Positions 17,072 through 55,284 of a stretch of DNA of 64,000 nt are shown piece after piece. Origin of the DNA: an uncultured Chloroflexia bacterium. GTDB lineage: Bacteria; Chloroflexota; Limnocylindria; Limnocylindrales; CSP1-4. The stretch covers positions 2,271-66,270 of the forward strand of contig CAWIML010000006.1 of NCBI GenBank assembly GCA_963837215.1. Reading direction: 5' to 3'. The notes under the pieces were generated by a model. It was not told where the DNA came from and ran no database searches. It worked only from the letters and a program-made list of their open reading frames with translations. A program made the position numbers and the translations under genes. Numbering within the stretch: position 1 is the stretch's first letter; the number at the start of each line of letters is the position of its first letter.

Positions 17072-18330
17072 GCGCCGCCGAGCAGCCGGTCATGTCGGCC
17101 TGGGACCGGGCCGGCGATCCTTCCACGGCCGCTGGGCCCGGTGTCAGCGCGCGCCCTGCGACGCCGTACCGCGTGGTCGCCATCCCCGGCGACGGCATCG
17201 GGCCGGAGGTCATCGCCGCCGGTCGCCAGGTGCTCGACGCCGTCGCCTCCCGGATGGGCTTCGCCTTCGACTGGCACGAGCTGGTCGTCGGGGGTCGGGC
17301 CATCGATGACTACGGTGTGCCGATCCGCGACGAGGATCTGGCCGCGTGCGCCGAGGCCGACGCCATCTACCTCGGCGCCATCGGCGGCCCGAAGTGGGAC
17401 GATCCCAACGCCGCCGTTCGCCCCGAGCAGGCGCTCTTCGCGCTCCGTGGCGGCCTCGGCCTCTACGCCAACCTGCGCCCGATCACGGTCGAGCCCGCAT
17501 TGACGGGCGCTTCCCCGCTGCGCCCCACGCTCCTCCGCGGCGTGGACCTGCTCATCGTGCGCGAGCTGACGAGCGGCCTCTATTTCGGTCGTCCTTCTGA
17601 GGAGCGCGCGACACCCGATGGCCGCACCGCCATCGACACGCTGGCGTACACCGAGACGGAGATCCGTCGGGTCGTACGGCTCGCCTTCGGGTTGGCCGAG
17701 GGCCGTCGGGGCCGATTGACGAGCGTCGACAAGGCCAACGTGCTGGCCACGTCCCGACTCTGGCGCAAGGTCGTTGACGAGCTCCGCCCGGAGTTTCCGA
17801 GGGTCGTCGTCGAGCACCGCCTCGTCGACTCCGCGGCCATGCTGCTCATCCAGCATCCGGCCGCCTTCGACGTCCTCGTGACCGAGAACCTCTTCGGAGA
17901 CATCCTGAGCGACGAGGCCTCGGTGCTGGCGGGTTCGCTGGGCATGCTGCCGTCGGCCTCGATCGGCGAGCGCCGCACGGCGCACGGCCTCTTCGGCCTC
18001 TACGAGCCGGTCCACGGCTCGGCGCCCGACATCGCGGGCAAGGATCAGGCGAACCCGATCGGGACCATCCTCTCGGGGGCCATGATGCTGCGCTGGTCCT
18101 TCGGTCGCGCCGACGCGGCAGCCGTCGTGGAGAACGCCGTGCGCGCCGCCCTGCGCGACGGCTGGCGGACGCCCGATCTGCTGCCTTTAGGGGACGCCGA
18201 GTCGACGGCCACGTCCGCGGACCCCGGCCCCAGGTCCGCCGGCGCCGTCAGGCCCGCCGGCACCAGCACCTTCGCGACCGCCGTCATCGACCACCTGCCC
18301 CCGCCGAGCGGTCCGGGAGCGGCCTCGTGA
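17068..18330 (+). CDS. leuB: 3-isopropylmalate dehydrogenase
   Basis: 420 aa ORF with VAIPGDGIGPEV, LVTENLFGDILSDEAS and GSAPDIAGK. The first ~30 aa look like an extension, so the true start may be internal. ATGA overlap with leuA. Confidence 0.9.
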   Translation: MSAAEQPVMSAWDRAGDPSTAAGPGVSARPATPYRVVAIPGDGIGPEVIAAGRQVLDAVASRMGFAFDWHELVVGGRAIDDYGVPIRDEDLAACAEADAIYLGAIGGPKWDDPNAAVRPEQALFALRGGLGLYANLRPITVEPALTGASPLRPTLLRGVDLLIVRELTSGLYFGRPSEERATPDGRTAIDTLAYTETEIRRVVRLAFGLAEGRRGRLTSVDKANVLATSRLWRKVVDELRPEFPRVVVEHRLVDSAAMLLIQHPAAFDVLVTENLFGDILSDEASVLAGSLGMLPSASIGERRTAHGLFGLYEPVHGSAPDIAGKDQANPIGTILSGAMMLRWSFGRADAAAVVENAVRAALRDGWRTPDLLPLGDAESTATSADPGPRSAGAVRPAGTSTFATAVIDHLPPPSGPGAAS

Positions 18331-38575: not shown

Positions 38576-38742
38576 AGCGCCAGGTCGCGAGGCGCCTCGA
38601 ACTGTGGTGCGCTGCACGCACCACTTGGGGACTTTGGGATGGTCGGGCGACGGTCCGGTGAGCTATGGTGAGGCGAACTCATCCCCCGGCGACGCTGCGC
38701 CCGCCCGCCGGGTCGTACTTCGCCACGGGAGGGCAGCGATCG

Positions 38743-41700
38743 ATGTACCAGGGTCCCCGCTCAGCGCCTGCGCGCTTGCTGGCGCTCGGAGCGACTCTGG
38801 CGCTCATCGCGTCGTTCCTTCCGCAGACAGCCGGAACGGCTAAGGCGATCCCGACCGGCTTCACCGAGACGACCGTCTTCTCGGGCCTGATCAACCCGAC
38901 GAAGGTCGTGTTCGCCAACGACGGACGCGTCTTCGTGGCCGAAAAGGCCGGCCTCATCAAGGTCTTCGACAGTCTCACGGACACGTCCGCCACCGTCGTC
39001 GCCGACCTTCGAACGAACGTCTACGACTACTGGGATCGCGGCCTCCTGGGCTTCACCCTGGCACCGAACTTCCCGACCGACCCTTACGCCTACGTCCTCT
39101 ACACCTACGACCACATCCTGGGCGACCAGAACCCTGCGCCACGTTGGAATGACTCGTGCGCCGATCCCCTCGGCGACGGCTGCCTCGCCAGCGGCAGACT
39201 CACGCGCTTCCAGGTCTCCGGCAACTCGATGGTCGGCTCCGAACAGCAGCTCATCGAGGACTGGTGCATCCAGTACCCCAGCCACGCGACTGGTGATCTC
39301 CGCTTCGGCACCGACGGCAAGCTCTACGTGAGCGCCGGCGACGGTGCGAGCTTCGGGTTCAATGACTACGGCCAGGATGGGAACCCGATCAATCCGTGCG
39401 GCGACCCGCCAGGCGGCTCGATGAGCCCGCCGACCGCCGAAGGAGGCAGCCTTCGCAGCCAGGACATCCGGACCAGCGGCGATCCACAGGGCTTCGACGG
39501 GACGATCCTCCGCCTCGAGGGGGCGACTGGCGCCGCGGCAGCCGGAAACCCGCTCATCGGCAACAGCGACGCCAATGTCAGGCGCATCATCGCCACCGGT
39601 TTCCGCAACCCGTTCAGGACGACGATCCGACCGGGCACCAACGAGCTCTGGGCCGGCGACGTCGGTCAGGGAGACTGGGAGGAGATCGACCGGGTCGATT
39701 GGTCAACGTCGCTGATCAATCATGGTTGGCCATGCTACGAAGGTGCGCCCAGGATGGGCGGCTTCGATGGGATCAACCTGAACATCTGCGAGAACCTCTA
39801 TGCGGCAGGACCGTCGGCGGTCGCCTCCCCATACCTCGCGTATCGGCACGGCCAGTCGGTAGCCGGCGAGAACTGCGCCAACGGGGGTTCTTCTATCTCC
39901 GGCCTCGCCTTTTACACGGCCAGCTCGTATCCATCGACGTATCAGGGCGCGCTCTTCTTCGCCGACTACAGCCGCGACTGCGTGTGGGTCATGTTCAAGG
40001 GCGCCAACGGCCTGCCAGACCCGACCAACGTCGTGCCGTTCCTGACTCCGGCGACGAACCCCGTCGACCTCGAGATCGGTCCCAACGGTGACCTCTTCTA
40101 CGTGGACTTCGGCACCACCGGCCCAACTGGCACCGTCCGCCGGATCACCTTCCAAGGCGGCAGCAACCAGGCACCCACCGCGCTGGCCACGGCCAACCCG
40201 ACGAGCGGCCCGGCGCCGCTGACCGTGGCCTTCAGCGGCACGGGCTCGTCCGATCCCAACGGCGACAGCCTGACCTACGCCTGGGACCTCGACGGCGACG
40301 GCGCCTACGACGACTCGACGAGCGCCACCCCGAGCTTCGTCTACCCCTTCGTGGGCAGCGTCGTGGTCGGCCTCCGGGTGACCGATCCCGGCGGCCTCTC
40401 GGACACCGACAGCGTGACCGTGACCGCGACCAGCGGTGGCGGCTCGCTCAGCTACCTGTCCGACCTGACGCCGACGACGGCGATCAACGGCTACGGGCCC
40501 TACGAGCGCGACACGAGCAACGGCGAGGACGCCGCCGGCGACGGCAACCCCATCCGCCTGGGCGCCACGACCTATCCCAAGGGCCTCGGCGTCCACGCCA
40601 CGTCGGACCTGCGCTACGCCGTCGCCACGAGCTGCACGAGCTTCGTCGCCGACATCGGCATCGACGAGGAGGCCGGCAGCCTGGGTTCGGTCATCTTCCA
40701 GGTCTACACGAACGGCACGTTGCGCTACACGAGCCCGGTCATGACCGGCGCCAGCGCCACCCAGAGCGTGAACCTCGCCATCACCGGCTCCACGGAGCTG
40801 CGCCTCGCGGTCCAGACCAACGGCTCGCCCGACTTCGACCACGCCGACTGGGCCAACGCGCGGATCACCTGCGGTGCCGGCAACCAGGCACCCACCGCGC
40901 TGGCCACGGCCAACCCGACGAGCGGCCCGGCGCCGCTGACCGTGGCCTTCAGCGGCACGGGCTCGTCCGATCCCAACGGCGACACCCTGACCTACGCCTG
41001 GGACCTCGACGGCGACGGCGCCTACGACGACTCGACGAGCGCCACCCCGAGCCGGACGTACACGAGCCGCCGGCTCGGTGACCGTCGGCCTCCGGGTGAC
41101 CGATCCCGGCGGCCTCATCGGACACCGACAGCGTGACCGTGACCGCGACCAGCGGTGGCGGCTCGCTCAGCTACCTGTCCGACCTGACGCCGACGACGGC
41201 GATCAACGGCTACGGGCCCTACGAGCGCGACACGAGCAACGGCGAGGACGCCGCCGGCGACGGCAACCCCATCCGCCTGGGCGCCACGACCTATCCCAAG
41301 GGCCTCGGCGTCCACGCCACGTCGGACCTGCGCTACGCCGTCGCCACGAGCTGCACGAGCTTCGTCGCCGACATCGGCATCGACGAGGAGGCCGGCAGCC
41401 TGGGTTCGGTCATCTTCCAGGTCTACACGAACGGCACGTTGCGCTACACGAGCCCGGTCATGACCGGCGCCAGCGCCACCCAGAGCGTGAACCTCGCCAT
41501 CACCGGCTCCACGGAGCTGCGCCTCGCGGTCCAGACCAACGGCTCGCCCGACTTCGACCACGCCGACTGGGCCAACGCGCGGATCACCTGCGGTGCCGGC
41601 AACCAGGCACCCACCGCGCTGGCCACGGCCAACCCGACGAGCGGCCCGGCGCCGCTGACCGTGGCCTTCAGCGGCACGGGCTCGTCCGATCCCAACGGCG

Positions 41701-42906
41701 ACACCCTGGCCTACGCCTGGGACCTCGACGCCGACGGCGCCTACGACGACTCGACGAGCGCCACCCCGAGCCGGACGTACACGCGCCGCCGGCTCGGTGA
41801 TCGTCGGCCTCCGGGTGACCGATCCCGGCGGCCTCTCGGACACCGACAGCGTGACCGTCACGGTCGGCGCGCCACCGGTCAACGAGCTACCGGTGCCGAC
41901 CATCGACGAGCCCACAGCCGACCTGACCTGGGCGGTCGATGATGTCATCACCTTCAGCGGCAGCGCGACCGATGCCGAAGACGGGGACCTCGGCCCCGCG
42001 TCATTGACCTGGACCTGGATCATGCACCACTGCACGACCCCGACGGCATGTCATACGCACAACATCGAGCAGTTCGTCGGCGTCGATGGCGACACGTTCA
42101 AGGCTCCCGACCACGAATACCCAAGCCATCTCGAGCTGCAGCTCACGGCGACCGACTCCGACGGCGGCTCAGCCTCGACGAGCGTCGAGATCCAGCCCAA
42201 GACGGTCGATCTGACCTTCACCTCGGCGCCAGCGACCGGGCTCCAAGTGATCGTCCAGAACGTGACCAGCACAACGCCCTTCACGCGAACGGTCCTCGTC
42301 AACGGGCGGTTCACGGCCACCGCCATCACGCCGCAGACCATCGGCAGCACCCAATACGACTTCACGAGCTGGTCGGACGGAGGCGCCCAGAGCCACGAGA
42401 TCACGGCGCCATCGACCCCGACGACATACACCGCGACATACGCCACCGCCGCCACGGTCACCACCCTGCCGGCCGCCGACGCCAACATCCGCTCGCAGCA
42501 GCCGACCAAGAACTTCGGGACGGCCAGCGTCCTACGCGTCCGTTCCGGACAGTCCCGCTCGTACCTGCGCTTCGTTGTCAGCGGCGTGACTGGTACGGTC
42601 ACCTCGGCGAAGCTCCGGTTGCGCGTCGTCGACGCCAGCCCCAACGGCGGCCGGATCTATGCCGTGACCGGGGCCTGGACGGAGACCGGCATCACATGGA
42701 ATAACGCGCCGGTGATCTCGGGCTCACCGATCGCGACGGTCGGCGCCGCCACCGTCGCGACATGGAAAGAGGTCAACCTGGGGACGTTCGTGACCGGCAA
42801 CGGCACGTACAATCTCGCCATCTCCGACGGTTCGAACGACGCGGTTGACTATCGAAGCCGCGAGACGGTGGACGATCCGCAACTCGTCCTGACGGTCACG
42901 CCGTGA
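38743..42906 (+). CDS. Secreted multidomain protein: PQQ-dependent sugar dehydrogenase beta-propeller, PKD, NPCBM, PKD, NPCBM, PKD, Ig-like region, DNRLRE/CBM-like C-terminus (three frame changes)
   Basis: An ATG at 38743 follows GGGAGGG, with signal peptide ARLLALGATLALIASFL. The propeller shows RVFVAEKAGLIKVFD, GLLGFTLAPNF, LRFGTDGKLYVSAGDG and GFRNPFR. The PKD modules show PLTVAFSGTGSSDPNGD. The NPCBM modules show LSYLSDL..NGYGPYERDTSNGE..ITC. The tail shows ADANIRSQQPTKNFG..LRFVVSG..GITWNNAP. The gene is pieced from track ORFs 38665..41136, 41133..41942 and 41797..42906, with shifts near ~41069, ~41113 and ~41788. Confidence 0.85.
40165..41858 (+). repeat. Tandem duplication of a PKD+NPCBM module (units of 717 and 719 nt plus a partial third)
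   Basis: AACCAGGCACCCACCGCG starts at 40165, 40882 and 41601. About 0.6 kb (about 40398-40990 versus 41117-41709) shows no mismatch by eye. Minus-strand track ORFs 40725..40985 and 41444..41704 are identical. Confidence 0.9.
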
Positions 42907-44059
42907 GGTTCTCGGCCGAGCGCTCCCTATAGGGGACGGTGGCGAAGCGGGCCACGATCGATGCGACGGTCCGGTCGAGCAGCGAAAGCTTGTCTGCCCG
43001 GCTGATCGTCATCCCAGGGTGTCGCGCCAGGCGCTCGTCGACGCCATCCTCGATGAGGCCAAGGGCGTCGATGCCGTGGATCGCATAGTCGAGCCCGAGT
43101 CCGCGCCGAGCCAGCCCGTCGAGGTGTCGATCGAGCGCGGCGTCAGAGATCATCGAGCGCATGGTGTGGTAGATGGGCAGGCGCGCGAAACGCGTGACGC
43201 TGACGGGAAACTCGGTGATCGACCGACCAGCAACGTCGTAGGTTCGTGGGCCCTCGCGCGTCGTCATGGGCGTGAGGCGGAGACGCAGGGCCATGCCGGG
43301 GCGACGGCTGCGTGCGGCAACGGCGAAGCGCAGGAGCGGCAGCAGCGGCGATGGGATGGTCGAGGCGTCGTAGCTATAGCCGGCGGTCGCGAGCCGCTCC
43401 AACAGGGCCCGGTCGATGTCCCAGTTCGGGGCCCGGAAGCCGATGATGGCCGTGCCGAGGGCGTCCTCGAGCAGCGCCTTCGACTGCACCAGCTCGACAT
43501 CGAGGCGGTCCGGTCGCAGACGGGCCAGGGCTGCCGGATGGGTCATCGAGTGGCAGGCGACCTCATGGCCCGCCGCTTCGATCAAGCGCAACGAGGCCGC
43601 CTGCGCCTGGGCGTCACGCCCGAGGGCGAAGAAGGTGGCGCGCACGTCATGCCTGGCGAAGATGTCGAGCAGGCGTGGGAGACCGGCGTCGAAGATGCTC
43701 GTGTCACGATGCGTGCTTGCCAGGCCGTAGCCGGCGAGGTGCACGTCGACAGGATCAAGGTCGACCCCGATCGTCGCCTGGATCCGGGTGGGGTCCGAAG
43801 GACGGAATGTGGTGCGGTCCGACAACGGGCGGGTCCCTTTTGGTGCCAGATGCGGCGCTCCGGCCTTGACCGGAACGCGCTTCGGAGCGTAGCGTCGGTC
43901 GCCGACGACCGTGATCCATGAGCGGACCGACACCCTAACCGGTCCGATCGCCGCAGACCAGCCATCCGCCCCGCGTCCCAGCCCAGCGACAGGTGCCCAG
44001 CCGATGACCGCAAGACCCCGAGCCGCCGTCATCGGCGGCGGCATCTCCGGCCTCGCCAC
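42896..44059 (-). CDS. Polysaccharide deacetylase (NodB-homology) family protein; start uncertain
   Basis: 387 aa track ORF with HDVRATFFALG and GHEVACHSMTHP. The annotated start would overlap the divergent gene at 44004, so a downstream start (for example GTG 43933) is likely. Confidence 0.8.
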   Translation of the reverse strand: MARPEMPPPMTAARGLAVIGWAPVAGLGRGADGWSAAIGPVRVSVRSWITVVGDRRYAPKRVPVKAGAPHLAPKGTRPLSDRTTFRPSDPTRIQATIGVDLDPVDVHLAGYGLASTHRDTSIFDAGLPRLLDIFARHDVRATFFALGRDAQAQAASLRLIEAAGHEVACHSMTHPAALARLRPDRLDVELVQSKALLEDALGTAIIGFRAPNWDIDRALLERLATAGYSYDASTIPSPLLPLLRFAVAARSRRPGMALRLRLTPMTTREGPRTYDVAGRSITEFPVSVTRFARLPIYHTMRSMISDAALDRHLDGLARRGLGLDYAIHGIDALGLIEDGVDERLARHPGMTISRADKLSLLDRTVASIVARFATVPYRERSAENLTA

Positions 44060-45341
44060 GGCCGTCCGACTGGCCGGCCTCGGCCATGCCGTAACGCTCT
44101 ACGAAGCCGAGCCTGGCCTCGGGGGCCTGGGCATGACCTTTCCCTACGGCGATGGCCACCTGGAGAAGTTCTACCACTGCATCCTGCCCGACGACCACGC
44201 CCTGCTCGGCTTCATCCGCGAACTCGGCCTGGAGGGCGACCTGCTCTGGCGGCGCACCGATATGGGTTTCATGCACAGCGGCAAGACGTACCCGCTCAAC
44301 ACGCCGATGGACCTGCTGCGCTTCTCGCCGCTGCCGTTCGTCGACCGCATCCGCATGGGCCTGCTCGGCATCCGCGCCCGACTCGCGCGGCCGTGACCCG
44401 GCCCTCGACGATCAGACGGTCAGCGACTGGCTCATCCGGCAGGTCGGTCAGCGGGCCTTCGAGACGGTCTGGCGACCACTCCTCGAGGCCAAGGTCGGCG
44501 ACAGCTACCCGGGCATCCCGGCGCTCTGGCTCTCGAGCCGGATGAACCGCGAGAAGAGCACCAAGCTCGAGGTCAAGGGCTGCCTGGTCCACGGCTATCG
44601 GTCCCTCATCGAGGCCTTCGAGCGCCGACTGCTCGAGATGGGGACCGAGATCCGAACCGGGACACGGGTGACCGCCGTCGAGCAGGACCCGGCGGGCATG
44701 CGCGTCCTGACGGAGCACGACAGCCAGGGCTTCGATCATGTCGTCGTCACGCTGCCGCTCGTCCAGTTCCAGGCGCTGACCCGCGGGCTGGAGCTCGATC
44801 CCTCGGTCGCCGGTCCACGTCTCGACTATCAGGGCGTGGTGAGCGGCGTCTTCCTGCTCGATCGAGCCGTTGACGAGCTACTACTGGATGCCGGTGGTCG
44901 CCAGCGGCGCGACCTGTCAGGGCATCATCGAGATGTCGAACCTCGTGCCCCTCGAGCGATCGCAGGGCCGATACGTGACGTACCTCGTCAACTACACGCA
45001 TCGGGATGGCCCGCTCTTCGCCCGTAGCGACGACGACTTGCTGGCCGCCTATCGGGCGGACCTGGCCCGCCTCTTCCCTGGTAGCGAGCAGACGATCAAG
45101 GACGAATTCCTCTTCCGGGCGCCCGTTCGTCGAGCCGATCTGGACGGTCGGTTACCAGCGGGTCAAGCCGCCGAATACGATCATCCCGGGCAGGCTCTAT
45201 CTCGCCTCGACTGCGCAGGTCTACCCACGCGTGAACTCGTGGGATTCGAGCTGCGAGGTCGTCGAGCGGATGATCCCGACCATCGTCGCCGAGACCGCCG
45301 CCGTCGCGGCCGAGCCGCGCGTCGTGGCGATGCCGGCGTGA
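44004..45341 (+). CDS. FAD/NAD(P)-dependent oxidoreductase (amine oxidase / phytoene desaturase-like; three frame changes)
   Basis: The ATG at 44004 begins MTARPRAAVIGGGISGLATAVRL. The sequence continues through track ORFs 44152..45027, 44870.. and 45006..45341 (..YLASTAQVYP..). Shifts lie near ~44390, ~44870 and ~45125. Confidence 0.7.
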
Positions 45342-46138
45342 TCACGGTCATCTTCCCGGCCTTCAACGAGGCCGGCGTCATCGGCCCGGCGCTGACCGCA
45401 CTGGGGGCGGTCGCTGCCCGACAGTCGGAGCCCTACCGGGCCATCCTCGTCGACGACGGCAGCACGGACGCGACGGTCGTCGAGGCCGAGGCAGCCGTCG
45501 CGGGCCTCGGGGGTGGCCTGCCGCTCGTGGTCCTCCGCCACGAGCAGAACCAGGGGCTCGGCGCGGGCCTCCGCACGGGCATCTATCACTGCCTCGACGG
45601 GCCGGCAGCGGACGACGACGTGGTCGTCACCCTCGATGCCGACGGCACGCATCCCCCGGAGCTCATCCCCGAACTCGTGGCCGAGCTGCGGGCCGGCCAC
45701 GACCTGGTCGTCGCGTCGCGGTTCCAGGCCGGCGCCACTGTGGTCGGGGTGCCGTTCATGCGGCTGGTCCTCTCGGGCGTCGGCCGCCTGGTCTTCCGCC
45801 TCGCTTTCCCGATGCGCGGGCTGCGCGATTACACGTGCTGCTTCCGTGCTTACCGCATGGCCATCCTGCGTGACGCACGCCGAGCTTACGGCGACGATCT
45901 GGTCACCGCTCGCGGATTCGAGGCCGTCCTCGACCTCGTGCTCCGGTTGCGGCCGCTCGGCCCACGCGTCGCGGAGATCCCCCTCCATCTGGACTATGGA
46001 CCGCGGGTGGGGCGTAGCAAGATGCACGTGCTGCGAACCATCCGGCGGACGCTCGTGCTCGTCGCCACGCGCTGGCTCGAGCAGTGGACCAAGGACTCGC
46101 CGGCACGCGTCAGGGCGCGCGTCGCAGCGGGTCGCTGA
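45338..46138 (+). CDS. Family 2 glycosyltransferase (polyprenyl-phosphate sugar synthase-like)
   Basis: A GTG at 45338 overlaps the upstream stop (GTGA). Motifs: VIFPAFNEAG, LVDDGSTD, TLDADGTHPPE. It reads through to 46138 within track ORF 44870..46138. Confidence 0.85.
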   Translation: MITVIFPAFNEAGVIGPALTALGAVAARQSEPYRAILVDDGSTDATVVEAEAAVAGLGGGLPLVVLRHEQNQGLGAGLRTGIYHCLDGPAADDDVVVTLDADGTHPPELIPELVAELRAGHDLVVASRFQAGATVVGVPFMRLVLSGVGRLVFRLAFPMRGLRDYTCCFRAYRMAILRDARRAYGDDLVTARGFEAVLDLVLRLRPLGPRVAEIPLHLDYGPRVGRSKMHVLRTIRRTLVLVATRWLEQWTKDSPARVRARVAAGR

Positions 46139-46143
46139 CGGGG

Positions 46144-47218
46144 ATGCGGATCGTCATCGCGGTCGGGACCCGTCCCGAGATCATCAAGATGGCGCCGGTC
46201 TACCGAGCTGCTGTGGCAGGCGGCCACGAGACGACGCTCCTGCACACGGGCCAGCACTACAGCGACTCGATGAGCGGGCGGTTCTTCGCCGAGCTCGGCC
46301 TGCCCGACCCCGATCGCGACCTGGCCGTGGGCTCCGGCAGTCACCCGGCACAGCTGGCCGCCGTCATCGCTGCGGCCGAGCCGGTGCTCGCTGCCTGGCA
46401 GCCGGACGCGGTGCTCGTCGAGGGCGACACGAACTCGGTCCTTGGGGTCGCTCTGGCGGCTCGAACCATGGGCTTCGCGCGTCGGCCATGTAGAGGCCGG
46501 GCTGCGCTCGCGGGACATGACGATGCCGGAAGAGCTGAACCGGATCCTCGTCGACCACCTGGCTGCGGATCTCTTCGCTCCGACGCCGGGCGCCGTTGCC
46601 AACCTTGCAGCCGAGGGTATCGATCGGCGGCGTCTTCATGGCCGGCAACACCGTCGTCGACGAGCTGGTGCGCCAGCGACCCGTCGCCCGCGCGACGGAG
46701 GCGCCCAGGGAGTTCGGCCTCGAGCGGCGCCGGTATGCGCTGGCCACGGTCCACCGAGCCGAGAACACCGAGCGGGAGGAGCGCCTGCGCGGCATCTTCG
46801 CCGGGCTGGCCGCGGTCGCCGCCGCGAGCGGGATGCCCTTGCTGGTCGCGCTGCACCCGCGCACCGCCGACCGGCTGGAGCGCCACGACATCGCCACGGA
46901 TCGTCGATCCGCATCGTGCCACCTCTCGGATACCACGCGTTCCTGGGCCTCATGGACGCTGCGGCGCTCATCCTCACCGACTCAGGCGGCGTGCAGGAGG
47001 AAGCCTGCGTGCTCGGCGTCCCGTGCGTGACGTTGCGCGACAACACCGAGCGACCCGAGACGATCGAGGTCGGGGCGAACATCCTGGCCGGCGCCGACCC
47101 GCTCGCCATCGCTGCCGCCGCCGCGACGATGATCGACCGGGGCGGCGGCTGGGCGCAGCCGTTCGGCGACGGGCTCGCCGGCGTGCGGATCGTGGAGGCG
47201 CTGGCGGCCGGGACCTGA
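46144..47218 (+). CDS. wecB: UDP-N-acetylglucosamine 2-epimerase (non-hydrolysing; three frame changes)
   Basis: The N-terminus reads MRIVIAVGTRPEIIKMAPV..HTGQHY. The next fragments are HVEAGLRS..PEELNR, NTVVDEL and TVHRAENT. The C-terminal part reads LGYHAFLGLMDAAALILTDSGGVQEEA..GVPCVTLRDNTERPET. These are spread over track ORFs 46084.., 46442.. and 46596... Confidence 0.85.
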
Positions 47219-47594
47219 CCGCCAAAGACGGTGCTTCCGGCGATGCACCGCCGAGTGTTGCGCGCGGTCAACGCATATCACCCCAAACCACCCCCAACCG
47301 CCCTAAATAGGCGAATCGACCTATCCGCGTGTGGCGGCTGTCCGGTAGAGTCTGATGTGTTCCGGATGGAATCGAGGTCAGCGTCGCCGGTAGCTGTACG
47401 AGGCGCCTGCCCGACTCCACCACGACGGGTCTTGAGGGGGGCCCGATCGGCGAACGAGCTCGGGGTCGCCGCATCTTCGCTCGCGGAAGCGACGACGTTT
47501 GCGTCCCCCGGATCGTCCAGCCGATCAGCGCCCACAGGCCTGTCTTAACGTCGGTGCGGCAGTGCCGCGAACGTCGATGACGCGGAGGGATTGA

Positions 47595-48125
47595 ATGATG
47601 CGGAAACTCCTGAAGACACTCGCCCTGGGATCGCTGTTGGCGATCCTTGTGGCATGGCCGGTCGCGGCCGCTAACGCCGTGACGATCGCCGGCGGCGGCA
47701 TCGTTGCCGGCTGCTTCACGGACGAAAGCGGAGACGAGATCGTCGCCGGAACCGTCACCGTGCTGTCCGGCACGGACGACTTCCACCTGACCCTGATGGG
47801 CCAGAACGCTGCGCTCCCGCCCGCGGGCTACTTCCCGCTTTCGGCCGCCGGCTTGGTCAACCCGCTGTTGATCGACAACACCGGCCCGGGCCCGTATGAC
47901 TTCGAGTTCAACACCACGAATGTCGATCCGTCGATCAAGAGCTTCCGGGTGGACTCGACCGACGCATGGGTGAACCCCGAGAAGTCCTTCAGCTTCCCAC
48001 GTGACTGCGACACGCCCATCGATGAGGCGCCGTTCGCGATCCTGCTCCTCGTCACCGGTGGCCTGGCGGCCCTCTGGTTCGCCTCCCGCCAGATGAAGGC
48101 GCCTGCGCCCACGACCGCCGCCTGA
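47595..48125 (+). CDS. Small secreted protein with a C-terminal tripartite sorting-signal-like tail (candidate exosortase substrate)
   Basis: Intact 176 aa ORF with RBS GGAGGG and signal peptide MMRKLLKTLALGSLLAILVAWPVAAANA. The C-terminus reads TPIDEAP, then the hydrophobic FAILLLVTGGLAALWFA, then the basic SRQMK. It lies 99 nt upstream of the exosortase gene. Confidence 0.7.
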   Translation: MMRKLLKTLALGSLLAILVAWPVAAANAVTIAGGGIVAGCFTDESGDEIVAGTVTVLSGTDDFHLTLMGQNAALPPAGYFPLSAAGLVNPLLIDNTGPGPYDFEFNTTNVDPSIKSFRVDSTDAWVNPEKSFSFPRDCDTPIDEAPFAILLLVTGGLAALWFASRQMKAPAPTTAA

Positions 48126-48223
48126 ACATCGCCCGTACGGCGCCTCGATCGATCGACGCGACGCGAGGCGCCGTCGAGCGCGCAGACATCCACGCGACCT
48201 AGCACCGAGAGGGCGGTATCGCC

Positions 48224-49849
48224 GTGAACGCCCCCGCCCCCGAGTTCGTCAAGTCGTTGGGCGCCCGCATCCCGATGCGGGCGCTCATCGTGTTGGGACT
48301 GGTCGCGCTCGCTTACCCGTGGTCGCTCTTGACACTGACGGAGGCGTGACGCTCCAGACGCCGCTCGCCTACCTCGCACTGGTGCCGGTCATCGCGCTCC
48401 TCCTGGCCGGGTCTCGCTGACCCGCCAGCCGGCGCCGATGCCCATCCACGATCGTCAGCTCGACTACATCATCGGGCTGGCTCTGATCCTCATGGCCGCT
48501 AGCGATCCTGCTGTTGCTGCCGGATAGCCTGCGCAGCCGGTTCTGGCTCTATCGCATCGACCTGCTCAGCCTGCCCTTCTTCGTGGCCGGCATCGTCACC
48601 CTGCTCTACGGCGTCCGCCGGCTGTGGGCGCTGCGGATCCCCATCCTCTTCCTCTTCCTGGCCTGGCCAGTCCCGTACCTGCCCCTCGTTGGTGATGGCT
48701 TGCGGACGTTCACGGACCTGTCGATCGCGGCGGCCACGGCCATCGCGAGTGTGAATCCGGCGGCTATCCCGGGAGCAGGCGAAGGCACGTTCATCGTCCA
48801 GTTCGCCGATCAGCCGTTCGTGGTCCTCATCGGCGCGGCCTGCGCCGGCGTCAACAGCATGGTCGGCTTCCTGATCATCGGGCTGGCGCTGACCTACGCC
48901 GTCCACGGCCCGCTCTGGCGAAAGGTCGCCTGGTTGGCCGATGGCCTTGTCCTCGTCTGGCTCTTCAATGTGCTGCGCATCGAGGCCATCCTCACCGTCG
49001 GCGCGCTGTTCGGTCGTCGAGCGGCCTATGACGTCCTGCACCCCGTCGCCGGCCTGCTCTTGTTCAACATCGCCATCGTCATCATGCTCCTGCTCATCCC
49101 GGTCTTCGGCCTGCGATGGCGGCCGGCGCTGGCGGGCGATGGGCGCAGTGCGCTGACGGCGCCACCCGGCGTCCGCAACGCGCGTCGTGCCGGGATCGTC
49201 GGCCTCGTCCTGGTCATCGCCTTCGCGACGGTCAACGCTGGTTATGCACGATTCGATTCCTTGCTCGGGGACCTGGTCGAGCCGAGACTGCGGGCGTTCG
49301 AGTTGAGTGCCGTCAAGATCGACGACTGGCGTGGCCGCCACCTTGCGGCATACAGCCAGGGCAAGCAGTTCTTCGGTGAGGCGTCGGAGTGGGATCGGTA
49401 TCTCCTGACGGCGGTCCCAGGGGCGGCGCTCTTTGCCAACGTGCCGGTCTACCTCGACGTCATCACGACCGACGACTACAACGCCCTTGCCGCCTACGGC
49501 GTGGAGGCCTGCTACGACTTCCATGGATTCGACATCGCGTCCATCGCGCCGGTCGACGTCGGCTCAGGGGTCACCGCCGAGGTCATCAGCTACACAGCGC
49601 ACGGAGCTAGGGACCGACTGGACGGCCATCTGGTGGGAGTGGCCATATCGCGTCGATGACAGCACGAGGTTCGCCCGCGTGACGATGCTCGTGCCTCAAG
49701 GCCCGACGGCCACGATCCAACACGATGAAGCCAACACGTGGACGTCGGAGTCGCCACGGTTCCAGGCCACCGAGGCCCTCCTTATCGATCTCGCCAAGCA
49801 GGTCGTGGCGACGCAGCTGCCGGCGCCCGACGAGGTCGCCAGCCGATGA
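48224..49849 (+). CDS. Exosortase/archaeosortase-family transpeptidase fused to an EpsI-like C-terminal domain (about four frame changes)
   Basis: Track ORF 48514..49659 holds the Cys in IGAACAGVNSM, the Arg in FNVLRIE and the His in VLHPVAGLLLF, inside a polytopic core. The N-terminus starts at GTG 48224 (..ALIVLGLVALAYPWSLL / LQTPLAYLALVPVIALLLAG / IHDRQLDYIIGLALILMAA) and is spread over three frames. An extra TM and a ~230 aa extracytoplasmic domain (..AYGVEACYDFHGF.., finishing in track ORF 49433..49849) follow. Confidence 0.75.
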
Positions 49850-51516
49850 GCGTCTTGCACATCCCGGACACCTTCCGAGCTGAGCCCGGAGACCTGCTCT
49901 GCGCGAAGTGCGGTGCGCCCCACGCCAAGGTCGGCACGGTTCTGCCGTCTGTGCGGCCATCGCGCACGGCACACCCCTCGCCGGCCAGCTCGTCGTGCAA
50001 GAGCCAGCCAGGGTCATGGCCCCTGCTGCGCCGAAGATCAAGACGGAGCGACCCTCCAAGCCACGCCCGACCGTCGAGAGCTGGGCCATCCTCGTCGATG
50101 AGCGCACCGGGATGCTCCAGCTGCCGGCCGAGCTGACCGCGGAGCGAACCTTCAGTCCGGCGCAGGCCCGGGCCTTCGCCATCGCCGGCTTCCTTCTGCT
50201 CGCCGCGTTCTTCATCCAGCCCCTGGCAACGGTCACCCTGCTGGTGGCTGCCGCAACGTTCCTCTACCTGAGCTCCATGGGCTACCGGATGAAGGCCTTC
50301 CTCGACGCCCTGCGGGCGCCGGCGGAGATCCGCGTCACCGACGCCGAGGCGCGTTCGATCCCCGACTCCGCGCTGCCGGTCTACACGGTGCTGGTGCCCG
50401 CCTATCGCGAGCCCGAGGTGATCGCACATCTCATCGCCGCGATCGACGCCCTCGAGTATCCGCGCGAGAAGCTCGACGTAAAGCTCTTGTTGGAGATGGA
50501 CGACCAGGCGACCTTCGATGTCGCGCGGCGCTCGATCAAGGGCAGCCACATCGAGATCATCCGCGTGCCGCCGTCATTGCCACGGACGAAACCGAAGGCC
50601 TGTAATTACGGCCTGACGCAGGCCCGCGGGGAGTTCCTCACCATCTTCGATGCCGAGGACCAGCCCGAGCCACTCCAGCTCCGGCAGGCGGCGGTCGCGT
50701 TGGCCGGGACTGAGCCGTCGGTCGCCTGCCTCCAGGCCAAGCTCGTCTACCGGAATGCGAACCAGAACATGCTCACCCGCTGGTTCACGACCGAATACGC
50801 GATGTGGTTCTCGCAGCTGCTCCCCGGCCTCGTCGCCCAGGGCGCACCGATCCCCCTGGGTGGCACGTCGAACCATTTCCGGCGCGACATCCTCGAGCGC
50901 GTCGGGGGATGGGATGCCTTCAACGTGACCGAGGACGCCGACCTTGGCGTCCGCCTGCACCGCCTGGGCTACTCGACGCGAGTCCTCGACTCGACGACCT
51001 ACGAGGAGGCCAACAGCGACTTCGTCAACTGGATCAAGCAACGATCGCGCTGGTACAAGGGCTACATGCAGACCTGGCTGGTCCACATGCGCGATCCACG
51101 GCGCCTCTATCGCGCTCTTGGGCCTCGGGCCTTCCTGGGCTTCAACCTCTTCGTCCTCGGGACACCGCTGCTGGCCCTGATCAACCCCATCTTCTGGGCC
51201 CTGACCATCCTCTGGTTCCTGACGAACGCTGCCGTCATCGCGTCCATCTTCCCGTCGTGGCTCTACTACCTGGGCCTGTTCTCCATGATCGTCGGAAACT
51301 GCGCCGTGATCTATAGCAGCGTGGTGAGCGCGCGGGCGACAGGCAACCCGGAGCTCGTCTTCGCGGCGGTCTTGTCACCGATCTACTGGGTGATGATGTC
51401 GATCGCGGCCGTCAAGGCGCTCGATCCAACTCATCAGCGCCCCGTCCTTCTGGGAGAAGACGACGCACGGCCTCGACCAACGGGCCGTGGAACGGAGCCA
51501 GCGTGCTATCCCCTAG
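49846..51516 (+). CDS. Zn-ribbon-fused processive family 2 glycosyltransferase (synthase type; about three frame changes)
   Basis: The ATG at 49846 overlaps the exosortase stop (ATGA). The N-terminus reads LCAKCG..(shift)..FCRLCGH. The core is track ORF 49908..51572 with VLVPAYREPEV, FDAEDQP, TEDADLG, QRSRWYKG and multiple TMs. The conserved tail IQLISAPSFWEKTTHGL lies one frame off (shift near ~51420), ending at TAG 51514-51516. Confidence 0.8.
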
Positions 51517-53330
51517 GCAGCTGGCGGCCGGGCTCCGTCTCCGACCCACCGCTGTCGCCGTCCCGAGGCTGAGCGAAGGGGCGGCCGTCGCCTCGATCGC
51601 CTTCGTCGTCTACCTCGTGGTTGCGGCGATCCTCGCCATCGGGCTGAACTTCGTCGTCGGCGACGCCTGGAGCCGGATAACCAACGCCTACTACGTCCTC
51701 TTCAGTCGCGACCCGCACCTGGCAGCCATCGGATTCGTCTGGAATCCGCTGCCGTCGATCATGGCGCTCCCGTTCCTGCCGCTGAAGGCCATCTTCCCGC
51801 CGCTGACCGAAATCGGTTTCATCTCGAGATATCTATTCGGCGCTCTTCATGGCCGGCGCCGTGTACTTGACGTGGCGGATCCTCTTCGAGATGGGGGTCA
51901 TTCGCTGGATCGCGGCTGCTCATCGTCGCGGCCTTCGCCGTCCATCCGATGATCGTCCAGTACGCAGGCGAACGGGATGACGGAAGCGCTCTTCATCTTC
52001 CTCATCCTCGGCGAGGCGTTGTACTTGATCCGCTGGCAGCGCAACGGTGACCTCGTCCCGCTCGTCTTCGCGGGCATCTTCCTCGGCGTCGCCTACCTGG
52101 TGCGCTATGAGGCGGTCGCCATCGGCATGACAACGGGCCTGCTTGTCGTGACCGTAGGCTTCCTCATGGCCGAGGGCGGTTGGCGGTTCCGGGTCAAGGC
52201 TTCCATCGCCGACGGCATCGTCTTCGGCGCGCCGCTCGCGCTTGCCTTCATCCTCTGGGCCGGCGTGAGTTGGCTCATCGTCGGCAGCGCGTTCGAGCAG
52301 TTCGGGTCGGTCTACGGCACGACATCGCAGCTCGCTGCCGACTACGAGAACATCATCGCGCGCGCCTCGGATGGTGAGGCCAGCATCCCCTATATCACCG
52401 GCCACCTGCTCATCCTTGAGCCAGGTTTCATGCTCATCGGCGTCGCGGCGGCGCTGCTCGCCCTCTGGCGGCGCGACGTTCGGATCCTGCCGATCCTCGG
52501 CGTCTTCGGGGCGGTGCTGGCCTTCGCAGTGGCGGCCTACATGAGCGGACAAGACCGGCGGCTGGGTCCGCTACTACATCACCATCATCCCGCTGGTCAC
52601 GCTCCTGGTGGCGTCGATCTTCGCTCGCTCCGATCCCGCGCCGGACTGGCTGGCCGCGACGGTCGAGCGACTCCGGCATCCTCGGAGTCTGCTCTTGGCG
52701 TTGACCGGGCACATCTACCCAAGGGCCTCGGCTCGCCAGCTGACGGCCGGGTCGGGCGCCGCAGACACCTCCGTCCAGACTCCTCGCCGCGTCGTGTGGC
52801 CCAAGCGTTGGCATCGGGCGACCGCCTTCCGCGGTCGGCTCCGGACCGACCGGATCAGGTCGGACCTCGCGATCGTCGCCATCGGCCTCCTCCTCCTGCC
52901 CTTGATCACGACGCCGATCGCGATGGTTTCCCCGCGCTTCAACTATCCGCTCGAGTTCCTGACGGACGCCGGACGTGTCCAGGCCTCCGCAGCGATAGGC
53001 GAGACCCTCGACGCGATGGATCTGCCGGAAGGGAGCGTCCTGCTCGACGTCTTCCTGGGCTTCGGCATCGTCGTCAACTCAGACAACCCGCGCCAGTTCG
53101 TCATCACGCCCGACCGCGACTTCAAGGCGATCCTCGCCGACCCGGCGGCCTACGGGGTCAAGTACCTCGTCGTTCCGCCCACCGACAAGGAGTTGGGCCA
53201 GCTGGACGCTCTGAACCGCGAGTACCCCACGCTATACAGCGACGGCGCTGGCTTCGCGACGCTGGTCCGCGAGTTCAACACCTTCTTGCCCTACTACACC
53301 TACTGGCGGCTCTATCGAGTGAACGAGTAG
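51503..53330 (+). CDS. Polytopic membrane protein, GT-C (ArnT/PMT-like) glycosyltransferase candidate with extracytoplasmic C-terminal domain (about three frame changes)
   Basis: Pieced from track ORFs 51503..51952 (GDAWSRITNAYYVLFSRDPHLAAIGFVWNPLPS), 51977..53428 (multi-TM) and 52608..53330 (soluble tail ..YLVVPPTDKELGQLDALNREYP..). The function call rests on architecture and weak resemblance only. Confidence 0.55.
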
Positions 53331-53376
53331 GCCACCGCACGCGGCCTCGTGGTCGGAAGGCCCGATGGTGGGCGGC

Positions 53377-55284
53377 TCAGTATCTCCCCAGCATCGACCA
53401 GATCGGATCGCCGGCATTGATGCCGTAGCTCGATGACGGATCCGGATGAAGGCTGTCGTGGAAGTTCCAGACAAGGGCCGCGTCGGCGCCGCGCTGGAAC
53501 TGGGCGCTGATCTTGGCATCGAACATGTCGGCTCGGGCCTGGTAGCCGCCGACGGCGTCGGGCACGCGACCGAGCTCACCCATGAGGATCGGCTTGTTGG
53601 CGGCGTTGGCCGTGTCGATCCGTTGGGCGAGGACGGCCGGCAGTGCGACTGACCCCTCGTAGTCGTGGTACTCGAAGACGTCCATGTTGGCGTGCATGGG
53701 GCCGTACTCGTTCATGCCGCATTGCGAGCCTGCCAGGGTGCCAAGGCTGATGAGGTGGTTGGTGTCGATGGCCCGGATGACGCCGGCCATGTCGTTGGCG
53801 AAGTCGCGCAGGATGAGGCCGCTGGCGCAGGAACCCGTCGAAAGGTCCTTGGCCTCGGCCTCGTTCATGAGTTGCCAGAAGGCGATGATGGGCTCGTTCT
53901 TGTAGCGGGTGACCGCCTCGGCCACGAAGGCGCGGTAGGAGACGATCTCGGTGTTCTGGTTCTTGTAGCCGGTCACGTACCAGGAGTCGTCCTTGATGCC
54001 CCCGGCCTCACAGGACCCCCAGTGGTCGCCGAACGTGAACATGAGCCGCTTGCCGTACTGCTTCGCCGTGGCCACGATGCGGTCGAAGGCGGTCCAGTTG
54101 CGGACGCCGTTGCGGGTCGCGTACCTCTGGTGCGCCCAGAAGCGCACGAGGTCCACGCTCGGCCCCATCTCGCGGAACTGGCGGTCGATGTCCTCGTTAG
54201 CCGGATAGGAGCACGCGATCCCGCTGACCGAGGCGAGGTTGTACAGGTTGGTGCCAACCGGCTTCCACGTCTGGCCGTTAAGCCGCAGGCTGGTACCGCT
54301 CGCGATCACGAAACCGCCCGGGTTGGGCGTCGGGACCGGAGTCGGGGCCACCGTCGGGGTGGGGGTTGGCGTCGGTGGCGCGGCTGTGGGCGTCGGGGTC
54401 GGCACCGGTGTCGGTGTCGCCGTTGGGACAACGGTCGGCGTCGCGGTCGGGGTGGGGCTTGGCGTGGGAGCGACCGTCGGTGCCACCGTGGGTGCGGCAG
54501 TGGGCGCACTCGTGGGGGCGGTGGTCGGAGCCACCGTGGGCGCGCTGGTCGGCGCGGTGGTCGGCGCTGCTGTCGGGGCTATACCCGTCGGAGCAGCGGT
54601 AGGCGCCGCGGTGGGGGCGGCCGTAGGTGCAACAGTGGGCGCCGTGGTGGGTTCGGGAGTCGGCTCGGCGGTGGGCTTCGGCGTCGGCTCAGGCGTAGGA
54701 TCGGGGGGCGGCTGTGGCGTGGGGTCGGCTGCCGGGACGACCGCGAACGACGTCGCGGCCAGGGGTTCGCCGACGATGATCTCCCCGTCGGACTTCGACT
54801 TGCCGGCGGACTTCGGCTTGCCTCCGCCTTTAGCTTTGGTCCCCGCCGCGGCATTGGGGTCGCCTCCCTGGGCGGCGGTGTCTGCGCTCGGCTCGGCGAC
54901 GATGGGCTCGGCCGCGGCGACCTGGTACTCGCCGACCTTGACCTTTGGCACTTTGAACTTGACCTTGAAACTGCCCTTGCCCGTGACGGTGACATCTGGC
55001 ATGTCCACCGTCTGGCCGTCGAAGATCAGCTGCAGACGGATCCGCGTCGCAAAGCCCTTTCCGGTGGCGGTCACGGTCTGACCGGGCCGGCCATCCGAAG
55101 GGTTGAGCGTAAGTTCTGGGGCGGTGGCCGATGTCGAGGTGAAAGGCAATGCCGCAGCAACCAGGACGATGACCATCCCAAGGGTGGCGATCCAGTCTCT
55201 GGCCGGGGTCGGCGGAGGCGGTGGCGGGGCGATCTCGGAGGGATCGTTGGTCCAGCGCGTGCCGTCCCAGAACTGCGTCGGCAT
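53377..55284 (-). CDS. Membrane-anchored GH5-family glycoside hydrolase with Ig-like domain and long Pro/Thr/Ala linker
   Basis: The internal ATG at 55282-55284 of track ORF 53377..55428 follows GGGAGGAA (MPTQFWDG..). A TM follows (WIATLGMVIVLVAAALPF). The catalytic domain has the acid/base motif FWQLMNEAE and the nucleophile motif ILMGELG. Confidence 0.85.
   Translation of the reverse strand: MPTQFWDGTRWTNDPSEIAPPPPPPTPARDWIATLGMVIVLVAAALPFTSTSATAPELTLNPSDGRPGQTVTATGKGFATRIRLQLIFDGQTVDMPDVTVTGKGSFKVKFKVPKVKVGEYQVAAAEPIVAEPSADTAAQGGDPNAAAGTKAKGGGKPKSAGKSKSDGEIIVGEPLAATSFAVVPAADPTPQPPPDPTPEPTPKPTAEPTPEPTTAPTVAPTAAPTAAPTAAPTGIAPTAAPTTAPTSAPTVAPTTAPTSAPTAAPTVAPTVAPTPSPTPTATPTVVPTATPTPVPTPTPTAAPPTPTPTPTVAPTPVPTPNPGGFVIASGTSLRLNGQTWKPVGTNLYNLASVSGIACSYPANEDIDRQFREMGPSVDLVRFWAHQRYATRNGVRNWTAFDRIVATAKQYGKRLMFTFGDHWGSCEAGGIKDDSWYVTGYKNQNTEIVSYRAFVAEAVTRYKNEPIIAFWQLMNEAEAKDLSTGSCASGLILRDFANDMAGVIRAIDTNHLISLGTLAGSQCGMNEYGPMHANMDVFEYHDYEGSVALPAVLAQRIDTANAANKPILMGELGRVPDAVGGYQARADMFDAKISAQFQRGADAALVWNFHDSLHPDPSSSYGINAGDPIWSMLGRY
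54319..54726 (-). repeat. Low-complexity (A/T/V/S)-P-T repeat linker coding region
   Basis: About 135 codons of APT/TPT/VPT-type repeats (..TAPTVAPTAAPTAAPTAAPT..PTPTPTVAPTPVPTP) lie inside the GH5 gene. Confidence 0.9.

Follow-up and report, generated by a model that had tools for sequence, protein, structure and literature searches.

Is a small exported protein whose C-terminus is built like a sorting signal the dedicated substrate of the exosortase encoded next to it? This question is raised by a stretch of 64,000 nucleotides (nt) from an uncultured Chloroflexia bacterium (contig CAWIML010000006.1; the whole stretch is hereafter called the window), where the gene for a protein of 176 amino acids (aa), here named the tail protein, directly precedes an exosortase gene. 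A preliminary description of this DNA, made from its letters alone, had drawn attention to the C-terminal motif TPIDEAP, to the hydrophobic helix and basic cluster that follow it and to the exosortase beside it, and had suggested a dedicated substrate or a marker of the system. The open reading frame (ORF), its tail and the exosortase are indeed located where that description had put them (ORF list, PF09721, TIGR04178), and the comparative evidence gathered here, with one tail per locus, speaks for the dedicated-substrate reading. We consider it likely that the tail protein is the one-to-one substrate of the exosortase encoded just downstream.

The gene of this putative dedicated substrate occupies positions 47595-48125 of the plus strand (ORF list, sequence). 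Its orthologous start is probably the second ATG, at 47598, and its translation ends in RDCDTPIDEAPFAILLLVTGGLAALWFASRQMKAPAPTTAA before the stop codon. Read by eye, the N-terminus has the n/h/c layout of a Sec-type signal peptide (MMRKLLKTLALGSLLAILVAWPVAAANA, residues 1-28, 47595-47678), as had been proposed; a helix is predicted at residues 5-25 by AlphaFold 2 (AF2), the sequence of this N-terminus is conserved in the alignment of the tail protein with its homologues (alignment A1), and cleavage would probably take place after A26 or A28. The following ~110 residues (~29-138, 47679-48008) are modelled as an extracytoplasmic Ig-like beta-sandwich, with strands within residues 29-121 and a predicted local distance difference test (pLDDT) score of 89-94 across residues 31-130, for a mean of 80 over the whole protein. 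A Foldseek comparison of this ectodomain with the PDB returned generic Ig-like matches only, none of them at E <= 1e-3, and suggested no function. Among the ectodomain cysteines, C138 is invariant and C40 is present in at least 90% of the sequences of A1, and a C40-C138 disulfide is possible.

The tail is laid out as RDC-DTPIDEAP-FAILLLVTGGLAALWFAS-RQMK-APAPTTAA up to the stop. Its signature motif T-P-I-D-E-A-P (residues 140-146, 48012-48032), which is equivalent to x-x-[IV]-P-E-[AVST]-P in a wider family described below, begins 37 residues ahead of the stop and is followed by an 18-residue hydrophobic transmembrane (TM) helix, F147-S164 (48033-48086), delimited by reading the sequence and matched by a helix that AF2 predicts at residues 145-167. 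Next comes a weak basic cluster, R-Q-M-K (residues 165-168, 48087-48098, delineated from its conservation in A1), in which R165 and K168, separated by Q-M, are the only basic residues and which ends 8 residues ahead of the stop. The C-terminal extension, APAPTTAA (residues 169-176, 48099-48122, with the stop codon at 48123-48125), had been counted as nine residues; it is eight residues long, and its existence as a conserved element is borne out by a clade consensus of APARPTAA, in which most orthologues gain one Arg, and by the (nearly) invariant A175-A176 at the end. The G+C content at third codon positions of the gene is 0.88, as in real genes of this DNA, and the ORF is intact, in a single frame from end to end, when compared with homologues from JGI, Logan and ENA, including the orthologue of the Logan locus L004. 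In the 64-kb window, a hidden Markov model (HMM) of the tail retrieved this ORF alone (E 2e-16; next best E >= 1.1), and a six-frame regular expression likewise found the tail exactly once. Applied to all fetched DNA, a detector of tripartite tails returned 37 tails among 4883 six-frame ORFs versus none among 5491 in the reversed sequences.

A search of 5.8 billion proteins recovered 14 homologues of the tail protein (E 1e-37 to 1e-96), all of them metagenomic and none with a name or a Pfam domain. Ectodomain identity among them is 60-88% and the tail is nearly invariant: the near-invariant residues are D137, C138, T140, P141, D143, E144, A145, P146, F147, A148, L150, L152, T154, G155, G156, L157, A159, W161, F162, A163, R165 and Q166, of which T140, P141, D143, E144, A145 and P146 are fully invariant within the clade. 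A1 contains 35 invariant columns, mostly inside residues 137-166, and in the basic cluster R165 and Q166 never vary and K168 is found in at least 90% of the sequences. At the nucleotide level, the diverged members share 78-92% identity over the last ~120 nt, which encode the tail, versus 63-73% over the rest of the gene. The tripartite tail noticed in the preliminary description is thus real and the most conserved part of the protein. No relative appeared when the GTDB species genomes were scanned with A1, the clade being without a species-representative genome, and a search of JGI metagenome contigs with the tail-protein alignment and a 27-base pattern from the leader of the gene gave no match, that collection being probably devoid of these contigs.

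The exosortase gene (48224-49849, plus strand) starts with a GTG at 48224, 98 nt past the stop of the tail gene, and scores well above the cut-offs of the generic family models (PF09721, 72 bits versus 25.7; TIGR04178, 52-54 bits versus 23). The intact orthologue, at 10634-12256 of L004 and corresponding to window positions 48224-49849, is 540 aa long and is predicted by AF2 to append a single additional TM helix and a ~190-aa extracytoplasmic alpha/beta domain to the exosortase membrane domain. Cys207, Arg252 and His273 are invariant in 20 aligned exosortase members (alignment A2), and these catalytic residues are found in the window reading frames within ACAGVN, NVLRIE and LHPVAG. All models of named subfamilies (XrtA-XrtX, CrtB/C and ArtC/D; exception-level models of NCBIfam) stay far under their cut-offs for this protein: the best scores were those of XrtW (58.9 bits versus 425), XrtV (58.3 versus 313) and XrtA (57.6 versus 208), with XrtB at 39 versus 275, XrtD at 47 versus 400, XrtE at 20-25 versus 150 and XrtG at 21 versus 103. 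Only the generic family signature is reached, and we rate the enzyme as a member of an uncurated subfamily. Its C-terminal part of ~240 residues, comprising the additional TM helix and the alpha/beta domain, has no match in Pfam or NCBIfam, and comparison of the exosortase with the folds of the PDB gave none at E <= 1e-3, the weak top matches of the C-terminal domain (3lyd, MTC28) suggesting no function. This extracytoplasmic domain appears to be an uncharacterised one; the motifs DVITTDD, EACYxFHG and WWEWPY were observed in it (residues ~300-540).

The exosortase has many relatives, and their neighbours place the TPIDEAP tail in a broader context. More than 500 full-length proteins are related to it at ~46-52% identity, and a scan of the GTDB species genomes with the exosortase alignment yielded 37 loci, all in metagenome-assembled genomes (MAGs), distributed over Chloroflexota (Limnocylindria, Chloroflexia), Dormibacterota, Actinomycetota (Acidimicrobiales, Gaiellales, Aquihabitans) and two contigs binned as Verrucomicrobiia. 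The latter (L019 and L022) are short, 2.8 and 4.5 kb, and are probably mis-binned since their sequences group with Chloroflexota-type loci. A tail-bearing ORF is found near the exosortase in 32 of the 41 loci with enough upstream sequence, just upstream of it in every case except one (L017, ~4.5 kb downstream on the other strand). Inside the TPIDEAP clade, the exosortase is the next gene after the tail gene in all eight contigs with enough downstream sequence, so that the adjacency pointed out in the window holds in its clade and extends to the wider family. A check for tails without an exosortase found none among the loci examined.

Altogether, 41 distinct tails conform to the pattern [IV]-[P or D]-E-[A, V, S or T]-P-x-A-x-L-L-x-x-[T or S]-G, where the conserved start of the helix extends to G-G; examples from relatives are PEIPEAPASALLILTAGLAGLAFLGLRMRRSDTAA, PNTPESPLAVGLPLAGLAIFAGAFGFGIRRRRNSASAV and YQVPEAPLPLLLPLSLLLMLGLAAGLRRYRQHTPSANA. 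The Glu is present in 41/41 tails, the Pro at +2 in 40/41 and an Ile or Val at -2 in 38/41, and position -1 is occupied by Pro in 27 and by Asp in 13, this Asp variant being confined to the clade of the window. The first basic residue lies 17-22 residues beyond the final Pro of the motif, 0-10 residues (commonly 4-5) follow the last basic residue, and the basic cluster of the relatives is RMRR or RRR(R). In 30/41 tails, a conserved Cys is located 5-10 residues upstream of the motif (counted within 12 residues of it), and nearly all complete tail carriers have signal-peptide-like N-termini (inspection and a simple score). The two forms of the motif are bridged by P0136, a homologue found when the tail only was searched against 1.84 billion representative proteins, which reads DTCVPVIPETPFVPLLAVTGGLVALWFVSRRMRALARTTA and exhibits C-VP-VIPETP-F at the same place; in this alignment, I-D-E-A-P corresponds residue by residue to I-P-E-T-P. 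A word-indexed search with P0136 returned P0136 alone. Judged from these alignments, TPIDEAP is the clade-specific form of an [IV]-P-E-[AVST]-P signal in which Asp replaces Pro before the invariant Glu. The motif had been called non-canonical, which holds insofar as it is uncatalogued; it is not isolated, being a Pro-to-Asp variant of a broader P-E-x-P signal. In the exosortase, the IDEAP clade and the IPEAP clades have different fixed residues at seven positions (33, 202, 234, 248, 284, 331 and 518 in A2, numbered after P0016), among them S202L, five residues before Cys207, and L248F, beside N249 and R252. These positions are candidates for determinants of specificity, and the change from Pro to Asp in the motif may have gone together with co-evolution at them.

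What the tail carriers share across genomes is the tail alone. Their ectodomains fall into at least ten BLAST groups, and profile comparison with hhalign connects the group of the window with that of L033 only (Actinomycetes and Gaiellales MAGs; probability 92.8%), all other pairs staying below 4%, so that the tail sits on at least five unrelated ectodomains. The finding of the same tail on unrelated ectodomains indicates a module that accompanies the exosortase rather than any single ectodomain. A second carrier of the tail, whose absence would have spoken against a sorting signal according to the preliminary description, exists many times over: besides the 14 orthologues, more than 25 proteins with unrelated ectodomains bear the sister motif [IV]PE[AVST]P. 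Our literature search found no paper connecting exosortases with Chloroflexota, Dormibacterota or Actinomycetota.

No curated sorting-signal model of NCBIfam 20.0 or Pfam (PEP-CTERM, PGF-CTERM, VPEID-CTERM and others) matches the window protein or its isolated tail at E <= 10, in agreement with the initial view that the motif is none of these three. The best tails of the relatives stay below the cut-offs of TIGR02595 (14.9 versus 16) and PF07589 (17.2 versus 20.7), and weak sub-threshold matches of relatives' tails to the PExPT-CTERM, VPLPA-CTERM, IPTL-CTERM and PFE-CTERM models were also recorded. The nearest general likeness is to PEP-CTERM and its enzymes XrtA and XrtB (TIGR02595, PF07589; PMC1569441), with which the system shares a Pro/Glu motif abutting a TM helix, a basic cluster (weak in the clade of the window), a target that begins with a signal peptide, a polytopic exosortase whose site is Cys/Arg/His and a glycosyltransferase-rich locus of the exopolysaccharide (EPS) type. 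However, PEP-CTERM has a contiguous P-E-P, whereas the motif here is [IV]-[PD]-E-A-P, with an additional residue between Glu and Pro (D-E-A-P in the window, P-E-[AVST]-P in the relatives). It also differs in that a polar extension of 3-10 residues follows the basic cluster here, that there is one substrate per locus where PEP-CTERM has many, that the enzyme is 540 aa long with a unique C-terminal domain and far from the cut-off of XrtA, and that its hosts are Chloroflexota, Dormibacterota and Actinomycetota instead of the Proteobacteria that carry PEP-CTERM and XrtA.

Other known systems resemble this one in single traits. PExPT-CTERM, the target of XrtJ, is a small protein, as is the tail protein. 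Its signal has the same P-E-x-P spacing (TIGR04200), and tails of relatives, for which this model ranks with the best of those below threshold, reach 15.7 and 13.5 bits of the 40 required; the window tail, however, gives no match and XrtJ is not among the matches of the exosortase. Exosortases that bear an additional domain at the C-terminus or come with a family 2 glycosyltransferase (GT2) are known (XrtD, XrtE and XrtW; the GT2s associated with XrtG and XrtP, TIGR03111 and NF053846). Our exosortase is likewise long, with an extra extracytoplasmic domain, and the GT2 encoded directly after it scores 35-42 bits with the XrtG-associated family and 28-33 bits with the XrtP-associated one, but the exosortase itself lies far under all the cut-offs of XrtD, XrtE, XrtW and XrtG. 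A one-to-one logic and a conserved two-gene neighbourhood are shared with JDVT-CTERM and its myxosortase-like protease MrtJ, in which there is nearly always a single target per strain, beside its enzyme (bioRxiv 10.1101/2023.06.07.544157). There, the enzyme is a CAAX-protease-like protein and not an exosortase, and the motif found here is without the invariant internal Cys. On these sequence comparisons, the system is one that would work like PEP-CTERM/exosortase but belongs to no curated flavour, an uncurated subfamily with its own dedicated signal.

Canonical exosortase systems have many substrates, and in dedicated sorting systems it is the regular proximity of the enzyme gene to that of its target that counts, in place of numerous substrates per genome (bioRxiv 10.1101/2023.06.07.544157, section 5). 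Here, each of the 40 tail-carrying sources (39 loci and the window) contains one significant tail ORF by both regular expression and HMM, in scans that covered the 64-kb window and, around every other locus, flanks of 6-10 kb per side. A phmmer search with the 46-residue tail against the 1.84 billion representatives returned its own family, P0136 and one spurious 968-aa repeat protein, and the TPIDEAP tail was on no other protein family of that set. One tail per locus together with adjacency matches the published criteria for a dedicated system (bioRxiv 10.1101/2023.06.07.544157), and a dedicated substrate would be a better fit to these comparative data than a signal for sorting many proteins. 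The same source also lists, for tripartite signals, a strongly hydrophobic middle segment as long as a TM helix, a terminal group of 2-5 basic residues (mainly Arg), a signal peptide on the carriers and carriers alike in their tail only; the window tail contributes just R165 and K168 to the basic group, where the relatives have RRR or RMRR.

From these features, we infer the following route for export, topology, cleavage and transfer. The N-terminal signal peptide would send the tail protein through Sec, its Ig-like domain would fold outside the membrane, and the C-terminal helix F147-S164 would anchor it in the membrane, R165 and K168 facing the cytoplasm. In this arrangement, I-D-E-A-P would sit at the outer surface of the membrane, where it could be reached by the Cys/Arg/His site that the exosortase has inside the membrane. 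As in PEP-CTERM/XrtA and PGF-CTERM/ArtA, on which this step is modelled, cleavage would take place at the motif or close to it and remove the helix, the basic patch and the extension, the ectodomain being transferred to an acceptor in the envelope or released. The target, the exosortase, a GT2 and a gene for a membrane protein resembling glycosyltransferases of the GT-C type form a conserved four-gene cassette, and this association means that the acceptor could be either a lipid or the glycan that the adjacent enzymes synthesise. To designate the product of the GT2 and GT-C-like enzymes as candidate acceptor or partner is speculation.

Several observations weigh against processing by a dedicated enzyme. 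Among the members of the clade, it is the sequence of the helix and of the extension after the basic cluster that is conserved and not merely their composition, which is unusual for a segment to be discarded and would be compatible, too, with an anchor or subunit kept in the membrane. In this clade the basic cluster is weak, R-Q-M-K rather than RRR, and the Pro that defines the 'PE' of PEP-type signals has become Asp. Every member comes from metagenomes or MAGs, and cleavage is something that we infer. Nine more distant loci in Acidimicrobiales/Actinomycetes MAGs (L018, L021, L024, L032, L035 and L041-L044) have no tail ORF within the fetched flanks, and their substrate may be encoded elsewhere or carry a different motif. 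The scans covered the 64-kb window and the flanks of the loci, so that further substrates elsewhere in the genome are conceivable. Finally, the window exosortase is frameshifted as assembled and, if this is real, the system would be inactive in this organism. Part of this would suit an unprocessed, C-terminally anchored (type I) membrane protein that acts as a stable accessory or regulatory subunit of the exosortase-GT2-GT-C machinery and uses its tail as an interaction helix, a view to which the 78-92% nucleotide identity of the tail, the sequence conservation of the helix and 8-residue extension and the strictly one-to-one, operon-like relation lend weight. However, the same tail, with its invariant Glu and Pro at the start of the helix, is found on at least five unrelated ectodomains beside orthologous exosortases and so behaves as a recognition signal for an enzyme and not as part of one subunit family. 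In addition, the helix is conserved mainly in pattern outside the clade, and the exosortase, which keeps its Cys/Arg/His residues, needs a substrate for which there is no other candidate nearby. We therefore regard a permanently anchored subunit as unlikely.

A general signal with many substrates, as in PEP-CTERM with XrtA, would make the adjacent gene just one of many carriers in the genome. The many substrates of canonical systems and the different ectodomains between lineages are compatible with it, and so is the limited reach of the scans; against it stand the single significant tail in each of the 40 sources, with no second one in the window, and the outcome of the phmmer search, and it seems to us very improbable. 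As for a fortuitous resemblance to a sorting signal or an ORF that is no real gene, high-GC DNA does yield many spurious ORFs and this assembly contains many indels, but 14 end-to-end homologues, the codon composition of the gene, a confident AF2 fold, synteny across phyla and the absence of tails from reversed sequences effectively refute this explanation, to which we give next to no credence. Processing of the tail protein by its neighbouring exosortase would account best for the modularity of the tail, its adjacency to the enzyme and the retention of the catalytic residues.

The genes around the tail protein and its exosortase keep the same order in all clade contigs with enough sequence: a polysaccharide deacetylase on the minus strand, an FAD oxidoreductase, a small GT2, WecB and, 330-380 nt further on, the tail protein, which is followed by the exosortase, a 556-aa membrane GT2, a membrane protein of ~570 aa resembling PMT_2/GT-C proteins and, nearby, a GH5 enzyme. 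The four upstream genes are specific to the clade. Assigned by Pfam/NCBIfam on the L004 orthologues and mapped to the window by tblastn, they are the deacetylase at 42896-44059 (minus strand), the FAD oxidoreductase at ~44004-45284, the small GT2, which is polyprenyl-phosphate glycosyltransferase-like, at 45338-46102 and the UDP-GlcNAc 2-epimerase WecB at 46144-47218. This block from deacetylase to WecB is syntenic in L001-L004 and L045-L049. Downstream, the membrane GT2 of ~556 aa (49861-51572, plus strand; Pfam Glyco_trans_2_3 and Glyco_tranf_2_3) resembles cellulose, PNAG and chitin synthases, with weak NCBIfam matches to CelA, PgaC and the XrtG- and XrtP-associated GT2 families. In L003-L006 and on the P0007 contig, it is the gene right after the exosortase, and in L007 the gene at that place encodes 673 aa and has no recorded Pfam match. 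The fourth gene of the cassette, for the polytopic GT-C-like protein of ~570 aa, is frameshifted at 51503-53330 of the window (plus strand; tblastn versus L004) and syntenic in L003-L007; PMT_2, with its cut-off at 26.1 bits, reaches 26.7 bits in L005 and 17.3 bits in L004. All loci inspected in detail have the exosortase, then the GT2 or the gene in its place, then the GT-C-like gene.

The gap upstream of the tail gene extends over 376 nt from the wecB stop (47218) to the ATG (47219-47594) and contains no conserved ORF; its length had been noticed as unusual, and it turns out to be conserved in the clade. The conserved non-coding leader proper, a 5' untranslated or promoter region, covers 344 nt (47251-47594, plus strand; nhmmer and alignments) and includes TAGAGT at 47347-47352 as a possible -10 box and GGAGGG at 47584-47589 as a Shine-Dalgarno sequence. 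With nhmmer, all matches (E 1e-99 to 1e-104) came from TPIDEAP-clade loci, the leader being absent from the other loci, and it is kept in 8/8 clade loci with fetched DNA. At the nucleotide level its identity is no lower than that of the sequence encoding the ectodomain, and may be higher, and the blocks GCGTCGCCGG.AGCTG.ACG, CCACGACGGGTC, GATCGGCG, CTCG.GG.CGCCGC and GCGGC...GCCGCGAACGTCGA.GACGCGGAGGG are invariant even in L045, L046 and L049, whose tail proteins share 55-59% identity with the L004 orthologue. No Rfam match was obtained for the leader at E <= 1, and no sigma-70 or terminator consensus was found in it. RNAalifold, run with five and eight sequences, proposes a fold that pairs the invariant blocks with 4-5 pairs showing compensatory change, covariation being almost nil because the predicted pairings join blocks that do not vary. 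These data point to a candidate cis-regulatory element specific to the TPIDEAP clade, perhaps a new cis-regulatory RNA, perhaps a group of sites bound by proteins. Possible alternative pairings were also seen around the Shine-Dalgarno sequence.

To our knowledge, exosortase systems are known almost entirely through bioinformatics and a few Gram-negative models. The locus described here bears on the rules of substrate recognition by exosortases and on the acceptor of transfer, and would represent a previously uncatalogued, experimentally tractable flavour of a known sorting system and not a new principle. With one enzyme, one small well-folded substrate and two glycosyltransferases, it offers a compact minimal system for reconstitution, and the occurrence of P-E-A-P in most lineages versus D-E-A-P in one clade is a natural experiment on the motif, in which the Glu and the following Pro are kept and the preceding Pro is not. 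It would also add abundant lineages of uncultured soil bacteria (Limnocylindria, Dormibacterota, Acidimicrobiia), probably without an outer membrane, to the hosts of exosortase-type sorting, and HMMs of the tail and of the subfamily would improve the annotation of several hundred metagenomic proteins now called 'hypothetical protein' or generic 'exosortase'. In its most ambitious form, the picture would combine an uncatalogued subfamily of 540-aa exosortases that has an extracytoplasmic domain of its own, uses P-E-x-P and is confined to uncultured Chloroflexota, Dormibacterota and Actinomycetota (Terrabacteria, mostly monoderm) with a dispensable Pro in 'PE', a single Ig-like substrate covalently linked to the glycan that the co-conserved GT2 and GT-C enzymes make and a new structured 5' leader RNA that controls expression; that all of these hold jointly seems doubtful to us.

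Gene calls in this part of the contig need care since indels affect the locus in the window (43900-53400) as well as in L001-L003. As assembled, the window exosortase has at least four frame changes, with its first 100 codons spread across three frames and its last 85 codons in another one. Compared with the L004 proteins by tblastn, frame switches also occur in the FAD oxidoreductase (three), wecB, the large GT2 and the GT-C-like gene, at an in-frame identity of ~60-91%, or 46-54% in single segments of WecB and of the GT-C-like protein. Split or truncated genes are likewise found in L001-L003 (ENA contigs with accessions ERZ250394xx-5xx), and the genes of L004 are intact. Pseudogenisation of the exosortase was considered and rejected because every long gene of the locus switches frame yet stays similar in frame, with L001-L003 alike and L004 intact. 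The frameshifts look like indel errors of an assembly presumably made from long reads.

The window has a G+C content of ~69%, and its ketol-acid reductoisomerase (IlvC) clusters with proteins of Candidatus Limnocylindrales MAGs at 90% identity or more, so that the genome of a soil Limnocylindria (Chloroflexota) bacterium is the most likely source. Farther from the cassette, the stretch between 37553 and 42906 encodes an LPG_synthase_TM protein, a GSDH-PKD-NPCBM protein that is large and secreted (38665-41136) and, at 41797-42906, a CBM96 protein. These genes, which also precede the locus in L002 and L004, may be part of an extended envelope-glycan region. Two GGDEF-EAL proteins of cyclic di-GMP turnover (23756-25516 and 28506-30461) lie 18-24 kb upstream of the exosortase/glycan locus and could take part in regulating envelope or EPS production. 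A branched-chain amino-acid cluster is present at 14415-19970, with the IlvC gene and two LeuA-like HMGL-domain synthases, and it is accompanied by an acetolactate-synthase-like thiamine pyrophosphate enzyme at 11962-13206.

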